Shown here piece after piece: positions 1,539 to 31,165 of a DNA stretch of 32,000 nucleotides. The first letter of the stretch is position 1. Every line of letters begins with the position of its first letter. The position numbers were made by a program, and so were the translations under genes. The stretch comes from Microcoleaceae cyanobacterium (lineage in GTDB: Bacteria; Cyanobacteriota; Cyanobacteriia; Cyanobacteriales; Microcoleaceae): NCBI GenBank assembly GCA_049647265.1, contig JBARXJ010000061.1, positions 28,750 to 60,749 of the forward strand, read 5' to 3'. The notes below the pieces were generated by a model. The model saw only the letters and a program-made list of their open reading frames with translations, made no database searches and had not been told where the DNA came from.

Positions 1539-2174
1539 ATGATATCGAGAAATCTTTGGAACGCCAACTCAGACCTAAAAACTGCTTGTTTGCAACATCC
1601 TTTTGTCCAAGGAATTGCCACAGGAACCCTACCCCTAGCTTGTTTCCGCTATTATGTGAGTCAAGATGCCTTTTTTCTGACTGCTTTTGCCCGCGCCTAC
1701 AGTATTGCTGCGGCGAAAACCCCTGACTGGGAAGGCTTTACTACTTTCCATAGTTTAGGAGATGGAGTCGTAGAAGAATTACGTTTACACCAAAGTTATG
1801 CTGCCGAATGGGAAGTGGACTTACAGCAAATACAACCTGGCATTGCCACCCGCCGCTATACAGACTTTCTGTTAGCAACTGCCTGGGGTAAAGATGTCGG
1901 TTTAACTACAGCCGCGATGACACCCTGTTTGCGACTCTATGCCTTTCTCGGTCAAAGTTTAGCACAGTCTCAAACTTCAGCCCATCAATATAGTGACTGG
2001 ATAAAGACTTATAATGATGCTGCCTTTGAAACATTAGCGCAACAATTAGAAGATTTAATGAACCGTTATATTACCTATCAAGAAACAGAAGCAAGTTCAA
2101 TTTACCGCTATGCAATGGAATGTGAACTAGAGTTTTTTGAAGCGGCTTGGTGTAGTCAATCATCGAATTTTTAA
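1539..2174 (+). CDS. tenA: TenA/thiaminase II family protein (aminopyrimidine aminohydrolase-like)
   Basis: 211-aa ORF with an ATG start. HPFVQGIATGTLPLACFRYYVSQDAFFL and TPCLRLYAF (conserved Cys context) fit the TenA family. Confidence 0.7.
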   Translation: MISRNLWNANSDLKTACLQHPFVQGIATGTLPLACFRYYVSQDAFFLTAFARAYSIAAAKTPDWEGFTTFHSLGDGVVEELRLHQSYAAEWEVDLQQIQPGIATRRYTDFLLATAWGKDVGLTTAAMTPCLRLYAFLGQSLAQSQTSAHQYSDWIKTYNDAAFETLAQQLEDLMNRYITYQETEASSIYRYAMECELEFFEAAWCSQSSNF

Positions 2175-3082
2175 GAATAACGACTCACACTAAAAATAAT
2201 ATAATTGTAAGGGATTAATTCAGTTCGATCATAATCATTCACAATTTGACCTGTTTTGGGATCGTATAACCACTCCTCCCAGTCCCATAACCGAGACTTA
2301 TTTTCAGGAATTTGAACCGCAATATAAGATCCTTCTGCTAAACGGGCGCGAGTCGCAATATGACTAAAATCAAGACCCATATAAAAATCTTGAACAGGTT
2401 CGTTTTTATGACGGTTTGCCATTGCTTTTGTTAAGCCTAATGCCATATTTGATAACGGTGCAATTGCAGGTTGAACGGTTTCAGCTAATTGAAGTCCTGC
2501 TTTAAATACATCGGATTCTAAAAAACTGAGGGCATCTTCGTCTTCTTGATTTTTAATATTAACCGTAAAACATTTAAACGCTACCCCTTCTGTTCCTACG
2601 TTCAAGCCAATAAAAATAGGATAACCAACAATAGCAGCTTGCTGACCTTCTCGGACTCGATAAGTACTATTAAAATGGAGATGTTCAATCTGACCCGCTA
2701 CTTGATTTTGAGCATAGAAATCAAATAAGATATGATGGGTTCCACTCCCTGGATAATCTGCAACTCGCAGCCGATCTAAAGTAATTTTAATCCGAGAATT
2801 TTTTAGGCTATTGTCAGGTGTAATATTACTCGCCGATTGAATTGGAATAGCTTGCGAACTTTCAGGAGTGGGAGGAATATAACCAAAACTATGGGCAGTG
2901 CTTTGCCAAATTTTAGACTGAAATAATCCGATATTATAAGTTTTTGCTTGGCTTTCTAAGCTGTTAGTATTTTCAATTTCTCTGGCGGTTTCTTCGTCTC
3001 CCATTTCCCTTAATTTAGCCGCTATTTCTTCAGGGGGTAAGCTGCCAATTACAGATATATGATCAAACCAATTTTCTGTCAT
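2171..3082 (-). CDS. hypothetical protein (orphan, no recognisable domain)
   Basis: Uninterrupted 303-aa ORF with an ATG start. The only competitor is a 60-aa antisense ORF. The N-terminal ~100 aa are E/S/P/T-rich and the C-terminal ~200 aa look beta-rich (ITLDRLRVADYPGSGTHHILFDFYAQ...). No TM segment was seen. Confidence 0.6.
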   Translation of the reverse strand: MTENWFDHISVIGSLPPEEIAAKLREMGDEETAREIENTNSLESQAKTYNIGLFQSKIWQSTAHSFGYIPPTPESSQAIPIQSASNITPDNSLKNSRIKITLDRLRVADYPGSGTHHILFDFYAQNQVAGQIEHLHFNSTYRVREGQQAAIVGYPIFIGLNVGTEGVAFKCFTVNIKNQEDEDALSFLESDVFKAGLQLAETVQPAIAPLSNMALGLTKAMANRHKNEPVQDFYMGLDFSHIATRARLAEGSYIAVQIPENKSRLWDWEEWLYDPKTGQIVNDYDRTELIPYNYIIFSVSRYS

Positions 3083-3175
3083 TTTAAACTTTCGTGTTTT
3101 ATACTTTACTTATTTTATCTTAATCCAGTAAACTAAAATAAAGTAGAGCTTTATCATAAGTTTTGGTGTAATAAA

Positions 3176-3406
3176 ATGAAGCAAATCCCACGCATTACTA
3201 TGGACTCAGAGGTTATGGGAGGGAAACCCTGTATTAGAGGAATGAGAGTAACAGTCGGTATGATTTTAGGTTTAATGGCTTCTGGATATTCTCACGACGA
3301 TATTTTACGAACTTATCCTTATTTAGAACCGGAAGATTTAACAGCATCTTTAGCCTATGCAGCATGGCGGGTAGAAGAAGTTGAAATCCCTTTAAAAGTG
3401 CGATGA
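3176..3406 (+). CDS. DUF433 domain-containing protein (antitoxin-like)
   Basis: 76 aa. GGKPCIRGMRVTVGMILGLMASGYSHDDILRTYPYLEPEDLTASLAYA is the DUF433 signature. Its stop overlaps the next start (ATGA at 3403-3406). Confidence 0.8.
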   Translation: MKQIPRITMDSEVMGGKPCIRGMRVTVGMILGLMASGYSHDDILRTYPYLEPEDLTASLAYAAWRVEEVEIPLKVR

Positions 3407-3768
3407 AAATTTTGATTGATATGAATCTTTCACCGGATTGGATCAATGTTTTCGCCCAGCATGATATTGAAGCAGTTCATTGGTCATTTGTAGGCAATCC
3501 TTCCGCAACCGATCAAACTATAATGCAGTGGGCTAGTATAAATGGCTATATTGTTTTTACCCATGATTTGGACTTTGGGACTTTACTGGCAGCGACTAAA
3601 GTAAGTAGTCCTAGCGTCATCCAAGTTCGTACTCAAAATGTTTTACCAGATTACTTAGGAAATACTGTTATAACTGCTATTAATCAAACTCGTAATTTTC
3701 TAGAAAATGGTGCTTTAGTTACAGTAAATGAAACCCAGTCCAGGGTTCGCATTCTACCTTTTTCCTAA
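3403..3768 (+). CDS. DUF5615 family PIN-like protein (toxin-like partner of DUF433)
   Basis: 121 aa. The MKILIDMNLSP N-terminus and FTHDLDFG acidic motif are typical of DUF5615 (Mut7-C/PIN-like) proteins encoded downstream of DUF433. The 4-nt overlap suggests translational coupling. Confidence 0.75.
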   Translation: MKILIDMNLSPDWINVFAQHDIEAVHWSFVGNPSATDQTIMQWASINGYIVFTHDLDFGTLLAATKVSSPSVIQVRTQNVLPDYLGNTVITAINQTRNFLENGALVTVNETQSRVRILPFS

Positions 3769-3837
3769 GCTATTCCTCGGAATCAACAGATTCGATATGG
3801 AATAAAATAAAATAAGATAGGCAGTAACCGGGACGTT

Positions 3838-6800
3838 ATGACTGTTATTAATATTCGCGAACTCAATACCACCGAAACAGGATTTGCAGCCGAACTCTCT
3901 TTTGATGGACATACTCGTATTCCTATTAAAATTGACGACCCTTTTAACGCCAAAGAAGAACGTCGGTTAGAGTGGTATTTTGAAGGATGGTTACAACATC
4001 CCATGCTGGAAACTCACAAGGCAGAAGCTGCTGCAAATAGCGTTAAAACCTATGGTGAAAAACTATTTGAACAAGTCTTTAATAATCGCCAAGCTATACG
4101 AGAATATGAGAAAATAAAGTCTAAACTGAGTCAGGTTCAGATCGAAATTGAGAACCGTAACCCTGAGTTTCAAGCGTTGCATTGGGAAGCGATCAAAGAT
4201 CCAGAACTGCCGAGACCATTAGCGGTAGACTGTATAATGTTGCGGAAATATTGCGAACTTGCCCCGATATCTGCGGCGGTTGAATCTTTTCCCTATATTA
4301 ATGTATTGGTGGTGGTTGCCCGTCCGGATGAAGACAAAGATGTCAGTTATCGAACCATTTCTCGACCCTTAATTGAAGTAATTGAAACCAGTCATTTACC
4401 CGTTAATGTCGAGTTATTGCGTCCGGGAACTTATCAAGCCCTGTCGAAACATTTGGAAGAAAAAGGGGCAGGATATTATCACATTCTTCATTTTGACGGA
4501 CACGGGGCGTTAATGGACTATCAACAGGTTCAACAACCCAATAAACCCCAACGATATTATTATAAAGGACGCTACGGACGCAGCGATATTGAGGAATTTG
4601 AGGGGGTAAAAGCGTTTCTCTGTTTTGAACAAGAAGAAGCAGGCAAAGTAGACTTAGTGGAAGCCACGGAATTTGCTAACTTACTCACTGGAAAAAGTAT
4701 TCCGGTTTGTTTACTCAATGCTTGTCAGTCGGGGAAACAAATAGACAACGTAGAAGACTACCGCGAAACCAGTTTAGGCAGTCGGTTGATGGCGGCAGGA
4801 ATGCAGATGGTGGTGGCAATGGGATATAGTGTGACGGTGTCGGCAGCCCAGAAAATGATGCAACAATTGTATCAGCATTTATTAACCGGAAAAGAAATTA
4901 CAGAAGCCATTCGTTTAGGACGACTCGAACTCTACAATGATAAGGAACGTCAGGCTTATTTTAATCAAACCATTGAATTAGAAGACTGGCTATTGCCTGT
5001 TGTTTATTTCAACCAAACTGTTAATTTTAACTTACGACCATTTACCCCAGAAGAAGAAGAAAAATATTGGGAAAAACAGGGCAGTCAATACCATTTTTCG
5101 TTGCCAGAATATGGTTTTGTCGGTCGAGATTTGGAAATTCTTAAAATTGAAAAAGCTTTACTACGCCACAATATTTTATTATTACGGGGGATGGGTGGAA
5201 CCGGGAAAACCACCTTATTAAATTATTTACGGGAATGGTGGCAAACTACCCATTTTGCCGAAAACGTGTTTTATTTTGGCTATGACATCAAAGCCTATAC
5301 AGTTAATCAGATTTTACATGAAATCGGTCAACAGGTTTATGACAGATTTGAACAGGCAAAATTTCAAGCCATGAACCCTAACGCCCAGATGCCGAAATTA
5401 GTTCAGAAGCTAAAAACAGAATCCCATATTTTAATATTAGATAACTTAGAATCTGTTACCGGGCAAGAATTGGCAATTCAGAATACCTTATCCGCCGACG
5501 AACAACAAAAACTGAAAGACTTTCTTAACCGCTTAGTTGGGGGAAAAACCAGAATTGTATTAGGATCTCGCAGTGGGGAAGACTGGCTACGAAATGACAC
5601 CTTTAGAACCAATCTTTATCCCCTGCAAGGGTTAGACACACAAGCCCGTTCTCTGCTGGCTGAACGCATTCTTAACCGTCATGCTGCGGGGAAAGTTGAA
5701 GTTATTAAAGCAGACGATAACTTTAAACGGTTAATCAAACTATTGGCGGGGTATCCGTTAGCAATGGAAGTGGTACTCGCCAACCTGAAAAGACAATCTC
5801 CATCAGAGATTTTAACCGCATTGCAAGCCGCCGATATTAATTTAGATGAGGACAGTGAAGACAAGACAAAAAGTATTCTAAAATGTGTAGAATATTCCCA
5901 TAGTAATCTCTCGCCCACAGCCCAGAAATTGTTATTATGTTTAGCCCCATTTAGTGGGTTCATAGTTCGTTCTGCAATTCCAGAGTATGTCAAACAACTC
6001 AAAGAATTAGAACCATTTCAGGATTATGAATTTGATCAGTTTGATGATGCCATTCAAGAAGCGATAAACTGGGGATTACTATCTGTCCGGTTTGAAGAGA
6101 ATCCTCATCTACTTAACATTCAACCAGTATTTCCTTACTTCCTCAAAACAAAATTAAACGCATTAAATGCAGCCACCTATAAGGTATTACAAAAAGGCTT
6201 TAAACGTCACTATCAAGGGTTAGCAGGTGATTATCAACAATTAATGAAATCAAAAGAAGCGGACAAACGACAGATCGGCATCTTCTTGTGTCGTTTAGAA
6301 TACGAAAACCTCTACAATGCCCTAGAAATTAGTTTACAGCAACAAGATTCCGTTTCGATTGTCTATTGCTTGAGTATCTATCTTGATTTAACTGAAGATG
6401 TTCAAACCCATCTAAAGTTATTAGAATGGGTAATTGAAGCCCAAACTGCCTATCCAGATGAGATGCGTACAGGTGAAATAGGCTTAGATCTTATCCAGAT
6501 CCTTGGGTTATTGGCAACCTGTTATTTAAAAAATCAAAATTACCGAAAAGCTAAGCAATTTTACAATAAGGTAATTGATCTAACCCAACTACTTGAGGGT
6601 GTATCTGAAGAACAAAAACAGTTTACAATTGCCTGCACTTACCATTATTTGGGAAGAATTGCTTTTGAACAACGACAATGGCAGCACAGCCAACGCTACT
6701 GCAAAGACGCTCTCAATATCTTTATTAAATACGATAATCAATCTCAACAAGCTTCTATTCACCATACTTTAGGAAGAGTTGCTGAAGAACAACGACAGTG

Positions 6801-7722
6801 GCAGACAGCTCAAACATACTACCAAAAAGCCCTTGATATATACATCAAATACAGTGATCGCTTATCACAAGCCTTTAACTATTATCACCTGGGAAGGGTA
6901 GCAGAAGAACAACGACACTGGCAAGCGGCTCAAACATACTACCAAAAATCTCTTGATATTAAGATCGAATACGGCGATCGCCACTCTCAAGCCTCTAGCT
7001 ACCACCAATTAGGAATGCTTGCCCAACAACAACGGCAATGGCAAGATGCTAAAACCTACTACCAACAAGCCCTTGATATCAAAATTGAATACGGCGATCG
7101 CCCCTCTCAAGCTTTAACTTACAATAATTTGGGAATGCTTGCCCAACAACAACAACAATGGCAAATTGCTAAAACTTACTACCAACAAGCAATTGATATC
7201 TACATTGAATATGGCGATCGCTACTCTCAAGCTTTAACTTGCCACAACTTGGGGATGGTTGCCCAAGCACAACGACAGTGGCAAGATGCTAAAACCTACT
7301 ACCAACAAGCTCTCAATATCAAAATTGAATACGGCGATCGCTACTCTCAAGCCTATACCTACCATCAATTAGGAAGGGTTGCCGAGGAACAACGACAATG
7401 GCAAATTGCCCAAACTTACTACCAACAAGCCCTTGATATCTATATTGAATATAGCGATCGCCACTCTCAAGCTTTCACCTATGGGCAATTGGGTTTATTG
7501 GCAGAAGCACAGGAAGACTGGGAAACAGCAAAAACCAATTCGTTGCAAGCGTTAGAGATTTTTGCTGAGTTTGAGGATCAGCATTATCTAGATATGACTC
7601 TCAGAAACTTGGCTCGACTTTATCACACCACTGAGGATGAGAGTCTGTTAACCTCGGTTGCCTCTATATTTGGTGTTGAGGTTGAGGAGGTGCAGCGTAG
7701 GTTTGAGGAGTTACGGGAGTGA
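3838..7722 (+). CDS. CHAT (caspase-like protease) - NB-ARC/STAND P-loop NTPase - TPR repeat protein
   Basis: 1294-aa ORF. The CHAT dyad contexts are HILHFDGHG (His222) and LLNACQSG (Cys296). NTPase motifs are Walker A GMGGTGKTT (aa 451-459), Walker B ILILDN (Asp535), LGSRS, and LLAGYPLAMEV (GLPLA-type motif of NB-ARC). The C-terminal ~400 aa consist of 40-aa TPR-like units. Confidence 0.9.
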   Translation: MTVINIRELNTTETGFAAELSFDGHTRIPIKIDDPFNAKEERRLEWYFEGWLQHPMLETHKAEAAANSVKTYGEKLFEQVFNNRQAIREYEKIKSKLSQVQIEIENRNPEFQALHWEAIKDPELPRPLAVDCIMLRKYCELAPISAAVESFPYINVLVVVARPDEDKDVSYRTISRPLIEVIETSHLPVNVELLRPGTYQALSKHLEEKGAGYYHILHFDGHGALMDYQQVQQPNKPQRYYYKGRYGRSDIEEFEGVKAFLCFEQEEAGKVDLVEATEFANLLTGKSIPVCLLNACQSGKQIDNVEDYRETSLGSRLMAAGMQMVVAMGYSVTVSAAQKMMQQLYQHLLTGKEITEAIRLGRLELYNDKERQAYFNQTIELEDWLLPVVYFNQTVNFNLRPFTPEEEEKYWEKQGSQYHFSLPEYGFVGRDLEILKIEKALLRHNILLLRGMGGTGKTTLLNYLREWWQTTHFAENVFYFGYDIKAYTVNQILHEIGQQVYDRFEQAKFQAMNPNAQMPKLVQKLKTESHILILDNLESVTGQELAIQNTLSADEQQKLKDFLNRLVGGKTRIVLGSRSGEDWLRNDTFRTNLYPLQGLDTQARSLLAERILNRHAAGKVEVIKADDNFKRLIKLLAGYPLAMEVVLANLKRQSPSEILTALQAADINLDEDSEDKTKSILKCVEYSHSNLSPTAQKLLLCLAPFSGFIVRSAIPEYVKQLKELEPFQDYEFDQFDDAIQEAINWGLLSVRFEENPHLLNIQPVFPYFLKTKLNALNAATYKVLQKGFKRHYQGLAGDYQQLMKSKEADKRQIGIFLCRLEYENLYNALEISLQQQDSVSIVYCLSIYLDLTEDVQTHLKLLEWVIEAQTAYPDEMRTGEIGLDLIQILGLLATCYLKNQNYRKAKQFYNKVIDLTQLLEGVSEEQKQFTIACTYHYLGRIAFEQRQWQHSQRYCKDALNIFIKYDNQSQQASIHHTLGRVAEEQRQWQTAQTYYQKALDIYIKYSDRLSQAFNYYHLGRVAEEQRHWQAAQTYYQKSLDIKIEYGDRHSQASSYHQLGMLAQQQRQWQDAKTYYQQALDIKIEYGDRPSQALTYNNLGMLAQQQQQWQIAKTYYQQAIDIYIEYGDRYSQALTCHNLGMVAQAQRQWQDAKTYYQQALNIKIEYGDRYSQAYTYHQLGRVAEEQRQWQIAQTYYQQALDIYIEYSDRHSQAFTYGQLGLLAEAQEDWETAKTNSLQALEIFAEFEDQHYLDMTLRNLARLYHTTEDESLLTSVASIFGVEVEEVQRRFEELRE
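6661..7560 (+). repeat. Tandem 120-bp (40-codon) TPR-unit repeat, about 7.5 copies, inside the CHAT-STAND gene
   Basis: gaacaacgacaRtggca recurs at 6667, 6787, 6907, 7027, 7147, 7267 and 7387, with a degenerate copy at 7507. The phase is exactly 120 nt. GCGATCGC occurs at 6974, 7094, 7214, 7334 and 7454. Confidence 0.9.
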
Positions 7723-7732
7723 AGCGCTGCAC

Positions 7733-7770
7733 GCAAGTCAGCAAGTCAAAAGTCAGAAAGTCAGAAGTTA
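7733..7770. repeat. Short tandem repeat (7-8 nt unit, RAAGTCA-like, 5 copies)
   Basis: gcaagtca gcaagtca aaagtca gaaagtca gaagtta, 10 nt after the CHAT-STAND stop codon. Confidence 0.6.
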
Positions 7771-7800
7771 GATCTTTAAACTAACAATATTAAGGACTTT

Positions 7801-7965
7801 GAGTTATTTACTCCCTCCTGTTCCCCGTTCCCTCTCTTACAAAGTTGCTCTACGCAGGCGAACCCCCTAGCGTAAGCCTGATTCGTAGCCATGGGCTTTA
7901 GCCCTATTGCCCGTAGGGCTATAGACCGCACTTTGCGCCGTTCCCCGTTCCCTCTTCCCTGGCGC
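7801..7965. repeat. Intergenic GC-rich dispersed repeat element with 16-nt direct repeats
   Basis: gttccccgttccctct occurs at 7820-7835 and 7940-7955, exactly 120 nt apart. Internal hairpins include tagccct/agggcta. cgcaggcgaacccc (7853-7866) is the exact reverse complement of 19787-19800. Confidence 0.5.
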
Positions 7966-7971
7966 TAGGCG

Positions 7972-9231
7972 CTATAACATTTGACTAAAAAATGCGATAG
8001 TTTCCTTTAATACCTTGACAAATTGATCGACTTCATCACGGGTATTATAGAAGTAGAAACTTGCCCTTGCTGTCGAACTAACACCGAGATATTGATGTAA
8101 AGGTTGGGTACAATGATGCCCGGTACGAATAGCAATTCCGGAGTCATTTAATAGCGTTGCTAAGTCATTGGCGTGAATTTCGCCCGCAGTAAAGGTGGCT
8201 AATGCTGCCCGTCCTTCTCCCTCTGAATTGGGTTGGGGGCCATATAGGGTAATTTCTGGAACTTCTTTTAATTTTTCGTATAAATAAGCCGTGAGTTCCT
8301 GTTCGTAAGTATGGATATTCTCCATCCCAATTGCCATTAAATAATCGACTGCTGCACCGAGGGCAATAGCTTCACCAATGGCAGGGGTTCCGGCTTCAAA
8401 TTTATGAGGAAGTTCACCCGTTGTAAACCCTTCTAGAGAAACCGTTTCTATCATTTCTCCACCGCCTAAAAAAGGAGGCATTTCTAATAGTAAATCTTTC
8501 TTACCATAGAGAAAACCAATCCCAGTCGGCCCACACATTTTATGTCCGGAACCCACTAACCAATCACAGTCCATTTTCTGTACATCGATGGGTAAATGAG
8601 GTAAACTTTGACAAGCATCAATTAATACTTTTGCGCCACAATTGTGGGAAATATTAATAATTTCTTCAACTGGATTAATGCAGCCTAACGTATTAGAAAT
8701 ATGAAGTACTGATACCAGTTTAGTTTTGTCTGAAATTAATTTTTTGAATTGTTCTAAATCAAATTCTTGAGTATCAGTTAATTCAACAAACTTTAAAACC
8801 GCCCCTGTTTTTTGGGCTATCATTTGCCAAGGAACAAAGTTACTATGATGTTCCATTACGGTTAAAATGATTTCATCTCCGGGTTTGAGATTATCTAAAC
8901 CCCAAGAATAAGCGACTAAATTAATTGCTTCGCTGGCATTACGAGTAAAGACAATTTCTTGATAGGAATTAGCGTTAATAAATTTAGTTACTTTTTGACG
9001 GGCAGCTTCGTATTCATCCGTTGCTTTGGCGCTTAATGCATGAATACCGCGATGCACATTAGAATTATATTGTTGATAATAATCCTGAATTGCATCTAAT
9101 ACCGCTAATGGTTTTTGAGAGGTTGCCGCATTATCGAGGTAAACAAGAGGATGGTCATTGACTTTTTGATGCAGAATTGGGAAATCTTGACGAACTTTAT
9201 CAGCTAATGTTTTTTCTTGAATTAATGTCAT
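7972..9231 (-). CDS. sufS: cysteine desulfurase SufS
   Basis: Class V aminotransferase motifs: [12 protein letters not shown] (PLP Lys) and [12 protein letters not shown] (catalytic Cys). It is the last gene of the sufBCDS cluster. I prefer the ATG at 9231 over the upstream TTG at 9264 used by the ORF track. Confidence 0.9.
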
Positions 9232-9331
9232 TTTTATCAATCCTTTTGTTTGGGCTAGGAACAATTTAGTAGTAAGTATACGAATGAAATTTAGGAGAAT
9301 AGAGACATTGATTAAAACGCCTCTATTGAAG

Positions 9332-27405: not shown

Positions 27406-27615
27406 CGTTTCCGACTTAATTCCAATACCTTATTAATCCGGTGGCTAAACACCTCAATCTGGGTAAAATTGAAATTTAGTAGCGATCGCGCTTGTTTAAC
27501 ATTTAAAGTAGCCTATGAGAGTTAAACTTCGGATCAGTCGCTATCATGAAGGATGGTTGTTTGCATCCCAACTGGCAAGCATTGAACTGGTTAAGTGCAG
27601 CGAGAGTTATATTTT

Positions 27616-29355
27616 ATGAATGCAGTTGAAATCGAAGAAGCCGTTTCCCAACTAGCGCAATCCCCTTTTGACCCAGAAGAATTTCCCTTTGCCTTCCTCG
27701 AAGCCTTCGGCAATAAGTCAACCACCATTAAACGGCTTAAAAGTAAACGCAGTAACTCAACAAATAAATCAGACCTCGGTGGTGTACTCCAGCGTCATAA
27801 TATCCATATCAAGGTTTGCCCGGAAGGCGAAGTAACGGCTACTCTCACAGCATTACGAGAAAGCCCTGCTACGACGAAACATAAAGCTAAGTTTATCCTC
27901 GCGACTGATGGCAAAACCTTAGAAGCAGAAAATATTACTGACGGGGAGACCATTGCCTGCGACTATCCCAACGTTGCTGACCACTTCGGATTTTTCCTAA
28001 TGCTGGCGGGCATTACAACCGTTAAACAGATTCGGGAAAATGCTTTTGATATTAAAGCCACGGGTCGCCTCAACCGCCTCTACATCGAACTACTCAAGGA
28101 AAATCCTGACTGGGACACAGCAGCACGTCGGGAGGAAATGAACCACTTTATGGCGCGGTTAATCTTCTGTTTCTTTGCTGAAGATACAAATATTTTCCAT
28201 AGTAATAACCTCTTCACAGACACTATTGCACAGATGAGTGCGAAGGATTCCTCGAATACCCACGAGGTGCTGTCAGAGCTGTTTAGAGCCATGTGTACGC
28301 CGCAAAAAGAGCGCGTAGGGTGGGGGATTCGTAATTGGGCTAATTGCTTTCCTTATGTGAATGGGGGGCTGTTTAACCCTCATCCTCTAACTCCTTCTCC
28401 CAAGCCAGAAGAAGAGCTATTTCACCCTCATCCCCTAACCCCTTCTCCCAAGCCAGGAAAAGGAGGACAAAGTTCGGCTCCCCTCTCCTCTTCTGGGAGA
28501 GCGGGTGGGGGTGAGGGCACATACTGGGAAATCTCTCCTGCCCTTAAAAAGAAAATGACTGAGGTTGCCCGTCAATTTCGTAAAGAACCAACTCCTAGTG
28601 AAAAAATCCTCTGGCAAGCCTTGCGCGGACGCAAACTAGAAGGACGAAAGTTCAGACGACAACAGCCGATAGGTGTTTTCATTGTTGACTTCTTTTGTGC
28701 AGCCGAGCGGGTGATTGTGGAAGTAGATGGAGGCGTACATAACTCACAGCAACAAGCAGACCAACAACGGCAGGAGTTGCTGGAGTCCTTGGGCCTGAGA
28801 GTGGTTCGTGTCAGCAGTGAGTTGGTCGAAAGAAATTTAGATGAAGCATTGGCTATCGTGCAACAAGCGTTTAGCCCTCATCCCCTAACCCCTTCTTCCA
28901 AGCCAGGAGAAGGGGAACAAGATCTGGTTTTTCCTAATTCTCTAACTTCTTCTCCCAAGCCAGGAGAAGGAGGACAAAGTTCGGCTCCCCTCTCTTCCTC
29001 TGGGAGAGGGGCTGGGGGTGAGGGTTTTCAATCTGGAAAAGGGGAACAAGATCCGGCTCCCCTGTCCTCTTCTGAGAGAGAAGCGGGAGATGAGGGCATA
29101 GCAGTACCCCGTTTTAGTAAAATTGCCCGCTCTTATTTGCTGCACGTTGGCAGTCTTGACTGGAAGCAGATCAATCCCGATATCTTTGGCTCGATGATTC
29201 AGGCAGTGGCGGATGAGGAGGAACGAGGGGCGCTGGGAATGCACTATACCAGTGTACCGAATATCCTCAAAGTATTAAATCCGCTATTTTTGGATGATTT
29301 GCGTTGGCGAAGCCTCTCACGAGTGAGAATCGCAACTGAAAACCGCAGAAAATAA
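27616..29355 (+). CDS. MmeI-family type IIL restriction-modification enzyme, N-terminal (nuclease-like/helical) part carrying an in-frame DUF559 insertion; likely a fragment of a disrupted gene
   Basis: It is colinear with MmeI as I remember it: MARLIFCFFAEDTNIF, FPYVNGGLF, SLDWKQINPDIFGSMIQ, GMHYTSVPNILKVLNPLFLDDL. 240 extra codons are inserted after FPYVNGGLFN. The frame ends at TAA 29353-29355, just before the conserved region continues in another frame. Confidence 0.8.
   Translation: MNAVEIEEAVSQLAQSPFDPEEFPFAFLEAFGNKSTTIKRLKSKRSNSTNKSDLGGVLQRHNIHIKVCPEGEVTATLTALRESPATTKHKAKFILATDGKTLEAENITDGETIACDYPNVADHFGFFLMLAGITTVKQIRENAFDIKATGRLNRLYIELLKENPDWDTAARREEMNHFMARLIFCFFAEDTNIFHSNNLFTDTIAQMSAKDSSNTHEVLSELFRAMCTPQKERVGWGIRNWANCFPYVNGGLFNPHPLTPSPKPEEELFHPHPLTPSPKPGKGGQSSAPLSSSGRAGGGEGTYWEISPALKKKMTEVARQFRKEPTPSEKILWQALRGRKLEGRKFRRQQPIGVFIVDFFCAAERVIVEVDGGVHNSQQQADQQRQELLESLGLRVVRVSSELVERNLDEALAIVQQAFSPHPLTPSSKPGEGEQDLVFPNSLTSSPKPGEGGQSSAPLSSSGRGAGGEGFQSGKGEQDPAPLSSSEREAGDEGIAVPRFSKIARSYLLHVGSLDWKQINPDIFGSMIQAVADEEERGALGMHYTSVPNILKVLNPLFLDDLRWRSLSRVRIATENRRK
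28377..28518. repeat. Left block of palindromic GC-rich repeat units (one partial and one full ~95-nt unit)
   Basis: The block reads ccctcatcc(c)ctaac(c)ccttctcccaagccag... The full unit at 28424-28518 ends in ctgggagagcgggtgggggtgaggg, an imperfect reverse complement of its own 5' arm. Confidence 0.8.
28873..29096. repeat. Right block of palindromic GC-rich repeats: one unit nested inside another
   Basis: The outer unit has arms at 28875-28924 and 29054-29096, interrupted by a complete inner unit (28925-29038). aaggggaacaagatc is duplicated at 28910-28924 and 29039-29053. Confidence 0.75.
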
Positions 29356-29368
29356 TAGCCGCAAGTTA

Positions 29369-31165
29369 TTGAATTTACGGTCTCGAATTGCGCGAATTCG
29401 GGTGTTTGACCCCGCTTGTGGATCGGGTAATTTCCTGGTCATTGCTTACAAAGAAATGCGCTCAATAGAGGCAGAAATTAATCGTCGTCGAGGAGAAGAA
29501 AATCGGAAGTCAGAGATTCCTTTAACCAATTTTCGCGGGATTGAAATTCGCCATTTTGCCGCAGAGATTGCCCGGTTAGCGTTGATTATTGCGGAGTATC
29601 AATGTGATGTATTGTATCTGGGACAACTTACAGCTTGCGAACTGTTTCTGCCACTGAAGCAGGATAACTGGATTACCTGTGGCAATGCCTTACGGTTAGA
29701 TTGGTTAAGTCTTTGTCCGCCAACGGGAACCGATGTAAAGGTGCAAGGTGAGGATTTATTAAGTTTGTTGCATGATGAAGCGGAGATTGAGTTTGAGAAT
29801 GAAGGAGGGGAAACTTATATTTGTGGAAATCCGCCCTATTTGGGTTCTACTTGGCAATCGAAAGAACAAAAAGACGATCTCAAACAAATCTTTAGTGGAC
29901 GAACTAAAACCTGGAAATCCCTCGATTATGTGGCAGGTTGGTTTATGAAAGCGGCAGACTACGGAACACAGACAAAATCTGCGGCGGCGTTTGTATCTAC
30001 TAATTCAATCTGTCAGGGGCAACAAGTGCCAATTTTATGGCCGTTAATTTTTAAGACAAAACACGAAATTGCTTTTGCTCACACTTCTTTTAAATGGGCA
30101 AATTTAGCCAGTCATAATGCAGGGGTAACGGTAGTTATTGTCGGAATTTCTAATCATGCTGAAAAAATTCGACAGTTATTTTCTATTGATGAAAACGGTG
30201 AGACAGTTGTAAAAGAAGCTGAGAATATCAATGCTTATTTGGTGGCTGGGTCTAACGTTATTGTTGAAAAAGCGATGAAGCCGTTAGATGGCTTCTTTGA
30301 AATGAGTTTTGGTAACAAACCTGTTGATGGTGGAGGTCTTCTGCTCACATCAGATGAAACAAGGCTACTTCGCAAACAAAATGAGACCGCTTATCAAGAC
30401 TTCGTTCGACCTTACCTGGGATCGGAAGAGTTGATTAATGGAAAATTACGTTTTTCCCTTTGGATTTCTGACGATGAAGCTAAAGAAGCGATAAAGTATT
30501 CTTTTATTACCGAGCGACTAGAAAAAGTGCGAAAGATGCGAGATTCCAGTAATAAAAAACAAACGAGAGAGGCTGCATCTTGGCCACATCGCTTTGGTGA
30601 AATTCGGCATCAACCCAGTAAATATTCAATTGTTGTTCCTCGTGTTAGCTCTGAAAACCGAGAATTTCTTCCTGTAGGTCTTGTTCAAGCTGGGACAATT
30701 ATCGGCGATCGCAACTTCGCCCTCTACGATGCCCCTCTGTGGAATATGGCACTCATTGCCTCCCGCCTCCATTGGGTCTGGATCGGCACTGTTTGCGTCC
30801 GGCTTGAAATGCGTTTCTCCTACTCCAATACCCTTGGCTGGAACACTTTCCCCGTCCCCACCCTCACCGAGCAAAACAAAACAGACCTTACCCGTTGTGC
30901 TGAGGATATTCTGCTAGCAAGAGAGCATTATTTCCCTGCCACTATTGCCGATATGTACGATCCAAAACGTATGGATAACGAGTTTCCTTTAGTTCGAGAA
31001 GCACACGATCGCAACGACGAAATCTTAGAGCGAATTTATATCGGTCGCCGCTTCAAAAACGATACGGAGCGATTGGAGAAACTGTTTGAATTGTATACTA
31101 AAATGACCAGACAAATAGCGTCATCGAAAAAGTCTGCAAAAAGGAAAACTCAAGGAGGCAAATAA
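29369..31165 (+). CDS. MmeI-family N6-adenine DNA methyltransferase / target-recognition part (C-terminal two thirds of the split R-M gene)
   Basis: 598-aa ORF with no ATG (TTG at 29369). Motif I is VFDPACGSGNFLV and motif IV is GNPPYLG (NPPY at 29828-29839). TRD and C-terminal blocks match MmeI blocks from memory: FGNKPVDGGGLLLT, SSENREFLPVGLV, YSNTLGWNTFPVP, DMYDPKRM. The frame is open upstream to 29327 and there encodes NNSRKLLNL, matching the MmeI region before motif I. Confidence 0.85.
   Translation: MNLRSRIARIRVFDPACGSGNFLVIAYKEMRSIEAEINRRRGEENRKSEIPLTNFRGIEIRHFAAEIARLALIIAEYQCDVLYLGQLTACELFLPLKQDNWITCGNALRLDWLSLCPPTGTDVKVQGEDLLSLLHDEAEIEFENEGGETYICGNPPYLGSTWQSKEQKDDLKQIFSGRTKTWKSLDYVAGWFMKAADYGTQTKSAAAFVSTNSICQGQQVPILWPLIFKTKHEIAFAHTSFKWANLASHNAGVTVVIVGISNHAEKIRQLFSIDENGETVVKEAENINAYLVAGSNVIVEKAMKPLDGFFEMSFGNKPVDGGGLLLTSDETRLLRKQNETAYQDFVRPYLGSEELINGKLRFSLWISDDEAKEAIKYSFITERLEKVRKMRDSSNKKQTREAASWPHRFGEIRHQPSKYSIVVPRVSSENREFLPVGLVQAGTIIGDRNFALYDAPLWNMALIASRLHWVWIGTVCVRLEMRFSYSNTLGWNTFPVPTLTEQNKTDLTRCAEDILLAREHYFPATIADMYDPKRMDNEFPLVREAHDRNDEILERIYIGRRFKNDTERLEKLFELYTKMTRQIASSKKSAKRKTQGGK

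Follow-up and report, generated by a model that had tools for sequence, protein, structure and literature searches.

A 2025 preprint lists ten protease-associated effector families, four of which are latent killers freed by site-specific cleavage (PMC12642450), and the design that joins a STAND sensor and a caspase-fold protease to a separate conserved partner is already known. Here we describe a block of genes at positions 2171-7722 of a 32,000-nucleotide (nt) stretch of DNA from a Microcoleaceae cyanobacterium (assembly GCA_049647265.1, contig JBARXJ010000061.1, positions 28,750 to 60,749 of the forward strand), the whole of which is called the window below. The block holds a gene for a 303-amino-acid (aa) protein, a toxin-antitoxin (TA) pair of the DUF433/DUF5615 type, and a gene for a 1294-aa protein that combines a CHAT protease domain, a STAND NTPase and a C-terminal array of tetratricopeptide repeats (TPR), hereafter CHAT-STAND. 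Our preferred reading, to which we give a probability of roughly 55%, is that the block is a horizontally mobile accessory module of two genes, the CHAT-STAND gene and that of its 303-aa partner, with the TA pair inserted between them; cleavage of the partner in a linker and action of the product on the cell envelope are what we infer for its function.

The EACC1-caspase(-STAND) systems (PMC7159879, PMC12642450) resemble the window in that a small non-enzymatic partner is linked to a protein made up of a caspase-fold protease, a STAND module and repeats. In both cases the partner varies less than the protein that carries protease and sensor, and the loss of an N-terminal autoinhibitory piece, which frees a membrane-active fragment of EACC1, matches the layout predicted for the 303-aa protein by structural modelling. 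However, EACC1 is about 100-115 aa long, has one conserved Gly-rich transmembrane helix and is encoded 5' of its protease, whereas the 303-aa protein and its relatives have ~300 aa, are predicted to be soluble beta-sandwiches, are usually encoded 3' of the protease and have no sequence or Pfam relation to EACC1. An EACC1 identity was ruled out by size, hydropathy and gene position, using the definition given in PMC7159879. Bacterial gasdermins (10.1101/2021.06.07.447441) are also proteins of ~250-300 aa encoded beside a caspase-like or CHAT protease, often with an NTPase or repeats, and by analogy the logic of activation by cleavage would be common to both. They differ in that the inhibitory segment of gasdermins is C-terminal, whereas the candidate one in the 303-aa protein is N-terminal, and a gasdermin identity was ruled out because the 303-aa protein has no gasdermin fold and no Pfam (E<=10) or PADLOC match to this family.

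Two other groups of systems invite comparison. In type III-E Craspase, which consists of Cas7-11 and the TPR-CHAT protease Csx29 that cleaves Csx30, a protease with CHAT and TPR regions cuts a neighbouring protein in an exposed linker, as might happen here. The differences are that Craspase is activated by RNA binding guided by CRISPR RNA and not by a STAND NTPase, that its domain order is TPR then CHAT, that Csx30 is a sigma-factor regulator and that the window has no CRISPR context. The Avs and other STAND proteins of bacteria that resemble eukaryotic nucleotide-binding leucine-rich-repeat receptors (NLRs) have an N-terminal effector, a central STAND NTPase and C-terminal sensor repeats, as does the CHAT-STAND of the window. 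Most characterised Avs carry their own killing domain, whereas the protease here has a separate, conserved protein linked to it. No Avs model of PADLOC matched the window CHAT-STAND, and CHAT is not mentioned in a large survey of Avs proteins (PMC13581612). Among the remaining listed families, Pepco (Trypco1/2; about 117 aa, beta-barrel oligomers, activated by removal of a C-terminal tail) was rejected on size, on the predicted monomer fold and for want of a Pfam match. The hydrolase zymogens (metallo-beta-lactamase-fold, alpha/beta-hydrolase and metallophosphoesterase types) were rejected because searches of Pfam, NCBIfam and PDB sequences gave no such match for the 303-aa protein, whose predicted fold is a beta-sandwich. 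The 303-aa family thus corresponds to none of the listed effector families that could be compared, CATASP not being among these, and it appears to be a new partner family with a new fold.

The 303-aa protein, encoded at 2171-3082 on the reverse strand, had been called an orphan in the initial annotation, and this label proved wrong. We found 1,257 homologues at E<=1e-3 in a database clustered at 90% identity, and an exhaustive profile search placed the family at 639 clusters at 50% identity. The best 120 homologues are full-length proteins of about 300-315 aa with 60-88% identity to the query. Their hosts include Methylobacter, Acidobacteria, Chloroflexi, Planctomycetes, Bacteroidetes, Actinobacteria, many cyanobacteria and archaeal metagenome-assembled genomes (MAGs), and identity across phyla is typically 60-65%. 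Family members are labelled 'hypothetical protein' in RefSeq, and no Pfam (even at E<=10), NCBIfam or PADLOC model matches the 303-aa protein.

The members of this family are strongly linked to CHAT proteases. In the first three loci looked up, each homologue adjoins a CHAT gene coding for about 1,200-1,300 aa, and the neighbour proposed by the initial annotation was then looked for in a survey of 67 loci on contigs from one genome per GTDB species, 45 of which had enough flanking sequence to be judged. A CHAT gene lies within 4 kb of the family member in 33 of these 45 assessable loci (73%), an adjacency to a caspase-like or CHAT protease that bacterial gasdermins share. In the canonical layout, seen in 23 of the 45, the CHAT-STAND gene immediately precedes the family member on the same strand, with gaps of -47 to +99 nt and often an overlap; the CHAT-STAND gene is upstream with a larger gap in two, divergent as in the window in two, and the CHAT gene is downstream in six. 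This association spans Cyanobacteria, Proteobacteria, Chloroflexi, Acidobacteria, Planctomycetes, Bacteroidetes and Actinobacteria. Two loci carry two paralogous CHAT-STAND genes of the canonical clade around or beside a single 303-aa gene (L039:6370-14559 and L028:2323-10008).

Co-variation and gene fusion point in the same direction. Over 20 canonical pairs the pairwise distances of the two proteins correlate (Mantel r=0.72, a value reached by none of 5,000 permutations). Seven fusion proteins contain the whole 303-aa module (P0123, P0201, P0175, P0194, P0257, P0126 and P0232). In P0232 it is joined to a CHAT domain and in P0126 to a C25/caspase-like peptidase; in the others its companions are leucine-rich repeats (LRRs), a lipase-like alpha/beta hydrolase, a phospholipase C (PLC)-type phosphoesterase or a peptidoglycan hydrolase with LysM and VgrG3-C domains. 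In a MAG of the Hodarchaeota (Asgard archaea) the family gene adjoins a split version of the system, with separate genes for a CHAT-SIR2 protein (692 aa), an nSTAND1-FHA protein (729 aa) and a C25-like protein (481 aa; L163:618-7386). The 303-aa protein thus belongs to a large CHAT-protease-linked family that co-evolves with CHAT-STANDs, which we regard as firmly shown. The CHAT neighbours at 33 of 45 loci, the co-evolution and the 303-CHAT fusion together support the view that the protein is the partner of a CHAT protease, plausibly its substrate or effector. The broader neighbourhoods of the family are mixed, some with TIR, EAD1, STAND or integrase genes and many with housekeeping genes, so a defence role is no more than plausible.

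The protein encoded by the CHAT-STAND gene of the window (3838-7722, forward strand) appears competent as a protease. Pfam recognises a CHAT domain (E 8e-19), NTPase matches of the NB-ARC/AAA_16/nSTAND6 kind, and TPR_12 repeats (E 3.9e-56), in agreement with the assignment made in the initial annotation. An N-terminal domain (aa 1-105) precedes the predicted caspase-like CHAT protease domain (aa ~106-400), which has the catalytic dyad expected of the CHAT/caspase fold, the histidine in HFDGHG (aa 218-223) and Cys296 in ACQSG. The NTPase follows with Walker A (GMGGTGKT, aa 451-458) and Walker B (ILILDN, aa 531-536) motifs, and then come a helical domain and the C-terminal TPR_12 array, so that the protein has the STAND/NLR-like architecture of an effector domain, a Walker A/B NTPase and C-terminal repeats. 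The His-Cys dyad and the Walker A P-loop are invariant among 17 CHAT-STAND homologues. Within the predicted sensor region, Tandem Repeats Finder located TPR-coding tandem repeats at 6769-7481 (forward strand), about six units of 120 bp (40 aa) that are ~79% identical to one another. Similarly high internal repeat conservation is also seen in rapidly diversifying NLR sensors.

The protease of the window is of a different clade from the usual partners of the family. In a distance tree, all the other 303-associated CHAT-STANDs form one clade, while the window protein and those of L009 and L010 fall in a separate deep clade. P0004 and P0005, the 303-aa homologues next in similarity (70% identity), show the canonical layout with proteases of the canonical clade. 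The simplest reading of the sequences is that in the window's lineage the original protease partner was replaced by a CHAT-STAND of another clade in divergent orientation. A mosaic protease with a CHAT domain taken from the canonical clade was ruled out, as identity is uniformly low in all four regions of the protein. A common small upstream partner of the related CHAT-STANDs was also considered and ruled out. Two members of the clade have small ORFs (open reading frames) directly 5' of the CHAT-STAND gene (L079:5695-5997, 100 aa, and L081:5575-5997, 140 aa), which are homologous to each other (E about 1e-12), have only eight close homologues and match no Pfam family; each has one hydrophobic helix rich in Gly and small residues followed by C-terminal strands, EACC1-like by the published description, a likeness that is unconfirmed. 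Of the small ORFs 5' of the related CHAT-STANDs, only these two are homologous, not one matches a Pfam family, and the window has none of them.

Despite the change of protease, the pair appears to be maintained as a unit. The same divergent 303-aa/CHAT-STAND pair occurs in four lineages with different surroundings. In the window, tenA lies on the 303-aa side and sufS on the CHAT-STAND side, with the DUF433/DUF5615 pair between the two genes. In L001/L009 the corresponding flanks are PGM and folE, and a HicB/HicA pair and a 66-aa ORF lie between; in L010 and L156 there is no TA pair, the spacers are 106 and 142 nt, the 303-aa side is occupied by a gene for a 1359-aa protein and by Uma2, respectively, and the CHAT-STAND side ends with the contig. 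Purifying selection acts on the 303-aa gene and on the CHAT-STAND gene, whose ratios of nonsynonymous to synonymous substitution rates (dN/dS) are 0.12-0.14 and 0.10-0.22, respectively, and the dS values of the two genes agree lineage by lineage (0.50 vs 0.45, 1.04 vs 1.18 and 0.85 vs 0.97). At six positions of the 303-aa protein that are otherwise conserved (residues 20, 29, ~53, 61, 85 and 176) there are replacements specific to the lineage. Five of these six lie in residues 20-85, the N-terminal module and linker, and one among the remaining 218 residues, a clustering that fits re-adaptation to a new protease. Co-inheritance and purifying selection favour the view that the swapped pair is functional in the window, and we consider this likely.

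Several observations weigh against a working two-gene module in the window, and most of them speak for a different explanation, namely that the window CHAT-STAND works alone and that the 303-aa gene is left over from a lost canonical operon, acting by itself or with a protease encoded elsewhere. Between the window CHAT-STAND and the canonical partners identity is only 21-27%, and domain by domain it is 19-29% everywhere, no higher than for the solo relatives of the window protein, so that no domain shows a gain in similarity towards canonical proteases. A reverse survey took 80 metagenome loci chosen for similarity to the window CHAT-STAND, 37 of them with adequate flank, and only one of the 37 had a 303-aa homologue, in a locus whose protease is of the canonical clade. 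Other members of the window's own clade (L076-L083 and L085; 41-65% identity) have unrelated neighbours and no 303-aa gene. The expectation that orthologues of the window CHAT-STAND would keep the 303-aa neighbour was therefore mostly not borne out: beyond relatives that are at least 82% identical, the neighbours are unrelated. In addition, the two genes are divergent and so are not co-transcribed, and about a quarter of the family, 12 of 45 members, lack a CHAT gene within 4 kb. As family-wide synteny fails for the window CHAT-STAND, the link between the two genes in the window rests on the four-lineage co-inheritance and on purifying selection. These are also what make a relic unlikely in our view: the pair has stayed adjacent in four lineages despite different outer flanks and different TA pairs in the spacer, purifying selection acts on the two genes and their dS values match, and chance placement of the gene beside a full-length homologue of its normal partner is improbable. 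The proposal of the initial annotation, in which the 303-aa protein could serve the neighbouring CHAT protease as substrate or effector, is accordingly supported in part: it has gained from the family-wide CHAT link, the fusion and the co-evolution, and it is weakened by the absence of this neighbour from the rest of the window's protease clade.

What the 303-aa protein does was approached through its predicted structure. The AlphaFold2 model, built from an alignment of 99 sequences, has a pLDDT of 92.5 and a pTM of 0.91 and replaced an earlier one made from 35 close homologues (pLDDT 74). The model begins with an N-terminal helical module (aa 1-43) whose helices at aa 17-26 and 30-43 are docked on the core. 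After a variable linker of low confidence (about aa 44-58) comes the core itself, a beta-sandwich (aa 62-301) interrupted by a helical insert at aa 179-222. These docked N-terminal helices, variable linker and beta core would amount to a substrate-like anatomy. In a Foldseek search against PDB nothing matched at E<=1e-3, and the top 50 included no gasdermin. The only significant structural match was an entry of BFVD from Hokovirus HKV1 (A0A1V0SF49, 323 aa; E 2.4e-7, template modelling (TM) score 0.42, 10% identity), an uncharacterised giant-virus protein of similar length to the 303-aa protein. Remote homology to solved structures was also sought by a profile search of PDB sequences and was dismissed, as the only hit was a spurious one to ribosomal L17 (E 0.15).

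Three features of the protein are awkward for an envelope-attacking effector. The best PDB matches are C2-like and weak, with E 0.017 and a TM score of about 0.3, and are not significant; hydropathy analysis revealed no hydrophobic segment (maximum KD19 1.32) that could span a membrane; and the mean identity of ~61% across phyla is unusual in comparison with known defence effectors and could mean that the protein has another role. The protein might, for instance, inhibit the CHAT-STAND, act as its chaperone or serve as a guarded decoy, in which case it would be a regulatory, adaptor or co-sensor subunit and not a cleaved death effector at all. Besides the lack of a membrane segment, this would agree with the lack of significant similarity to any known toxin or pore former, and with the mean identities over the 20 canonical pairs, 61% for the small protein vs 51% for the CHAT and NTPase region of the protease, as if several interfaces or mimicry constrained the smaller protein. 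Nevertheless, in the fusions the 303-aa module stands beside sensor-type LRRs or envelope-degrading enzymes, more as a module for output or targeting would, known protease-effector pairs show a similar gene order and coupling (PMC12642450), and a quarter of the family members have no protease neighbour. We hold a purely regulatory role to be rather improbable. The weak C2-like fold, together with the fusions to lipase-like, PLC-type and LysM+VgrG3-C enzymes, gives a hint of the envelope as the site of action.

In the most likely interpretation, which draws on analogy with the described systems, the 303-aa family would be a new protease-partnered effector family within an NLR-like cell-death module. 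The trigger sensed by the C-terminal TPR array of the CHAT-STAND would probably be a stress signal or a phage protein, upon which the NTPase would drive oligomerisation and so activate the CHAT protease. The activated protease would cut the 303-aa protein in the exposed variable linker (about aa 44-58), which would remove the docked N-terminal helical module, and the freed beta-sandwich core may act on the cell envelope or membrane such that the cell is stopped or killed. The DUF433/DUF5615 pair would be an independent passenger, selfish or stabilising, in this scheme. Going further, we suggest tentatively, at somewhat less than even odds, that the family represents an eleventh and undescribed class of protease-licensed death effectors with a new fold. 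Such an effector would be kept latent by its docked N-terminal helices, be released by CHAT cleavage and attack the membrane or envelope; horizontal transfer would have carried the class into at least eight bacterial phyla and into archaea, a giant virus would hold a structural relative, and the effector would be able to pair anew with unrelated CHAT-STANDs, as in the window.

The TA pair lies outside the conserved core of the module. The DUF433 antitoxin-like gene (3176-3406, forward strand, 76 aa; PF04255, E 3.1e-24) and the DUF5615 PIN-like toxin-like gene (3403-3768, forward strand, 121 aa; PF18480, E 8.5e-25, with a weak PIN_10 match) overlap by ATGA at 3403-3406. Like the type II systems of the VapBC-like and HicAB kinds, the pair consists of two small overlapping genes, both of which fall in Pfam families as initially assigned; its toxin activity is putative, and here the pair is not conserved with the module. 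Because of this lack of conservation it is best described as variable mobile cargo in the spacer, and its status as a passenger is shown by comparison with the related loci. That the module should instead comprise four genes, with the pair built in as a layer of addiction or regulation as the initial annotation had proposed, is very improbable and finds no support: the pair does lie 69 nt upstream of the CHAT-STAND gene in the same direction with no terminator-like site between, and a HicB/HicA pair takes the same position and orientation in L001/L009 (L001:7185-8000), but the TA family thereby varies among close relatives, the spacers of L010 and L156 hold no TA pair, none of the canonical loci has one between the 303-aa and CHAT-STAND genes, and in the 75 loci first fetched phmmer detected no homologue of DUF5615 and only one of DUF433.

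As a whole, the block is accessory and occupies a slot between tenA and sufS whose contents vary. The gene order DUF1800-tenA-[X]-sufS-sufD-sufC-sufB-sufR is kept in relatives whose tenA is 93% and 84% identical to that of the window, and the cargo X varies. In the closest relative, a Microcoleaceae MAG with the 93% identical tenA (L159), the slot contains an M23 peptidase gene and a CHAT-STAND remnant (L159:10784-14530). An ORF of 637 aa in this remnant matches window positions 5784-7722 at 78-85% nucleotide identity and covers about aa 650-1294 of the CHAT-STAND; a 71-bp piece of the catalytic-His region is fused directly to it, and the place of the rest is taken by the M23 peptidase gene. 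It follows that the common ancestor carried the module, which has since decayed in L159. Genes of the defence type often decay.

The gene calls and spacings of the initial annotation all hold when set against the ORF list and the sequence, including the four ORFs, the ATGA overlap, the 93 nt (3083-3175) that separate the 303-aa gene from the divergently oriented TA pair and the 69-nt gap between the DUF5615 and CHAT-STAND genes (3769-3837). The identity of the flanks was confirmed by Pfam, with tenA at 1539-2174 (TENA_THI-4) and a class-V aminotransferase/SufS gene at 7972-9264 that is followed by sufD, sufC and sufB. A scan for promoters and terminators was uninformative, as it found fewer promoter-like sites than in shuffled sequences, and its one promoter-like match in the divergent region (3076-3105, forward strand) was not significant. 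The short repeats noted at the right border are real. The intergenic region that separates the CHAT-STAND gene from sufS contains an AAGTCAG(A/C) tandem repeat (7735-7772) and, at 7820-7835 and 7940-7955, an exact 16-nt direct repeat, GTTCCCCGTTCCCTCT. The two copies of the latter are 120 nt apart, with a chance expectation of 0, and flank a 14-nt imperfect hairpin at 7893-7927. This repeat was absent from every fetched locus, by which its interpretation as the end of a common mobile element was ruled out. An Rfam search of positions 2000-8100 matched no family, the right-border repeats included, and there is no tRNA within the window. Elsewhere in the window (27595-31165), an MmeI-family type IIL restriction-modification enzyme is split over two adjacent ORFs, the first with MmeI N-terminal and helicase-spacer domains followed by a DUF559 (Vsr-like endonuclease) domain, and the second with the methyltransferase, target-recognition and C-terminal domains.

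In conclusion, effectors gated by proteases are emerging as a dominant logic of prokaryotic immunity, in parallel to the caspase/gasdermin and NLR pathways of eukaryotes. The 303-aa family would add to these systems a structurally new executioner, or else a new regulator. The window itself is a natural experiment in which the same partner has been kept with a protease of another clade, and it offers a handle on how the specificity between protease and substrate is rewired.

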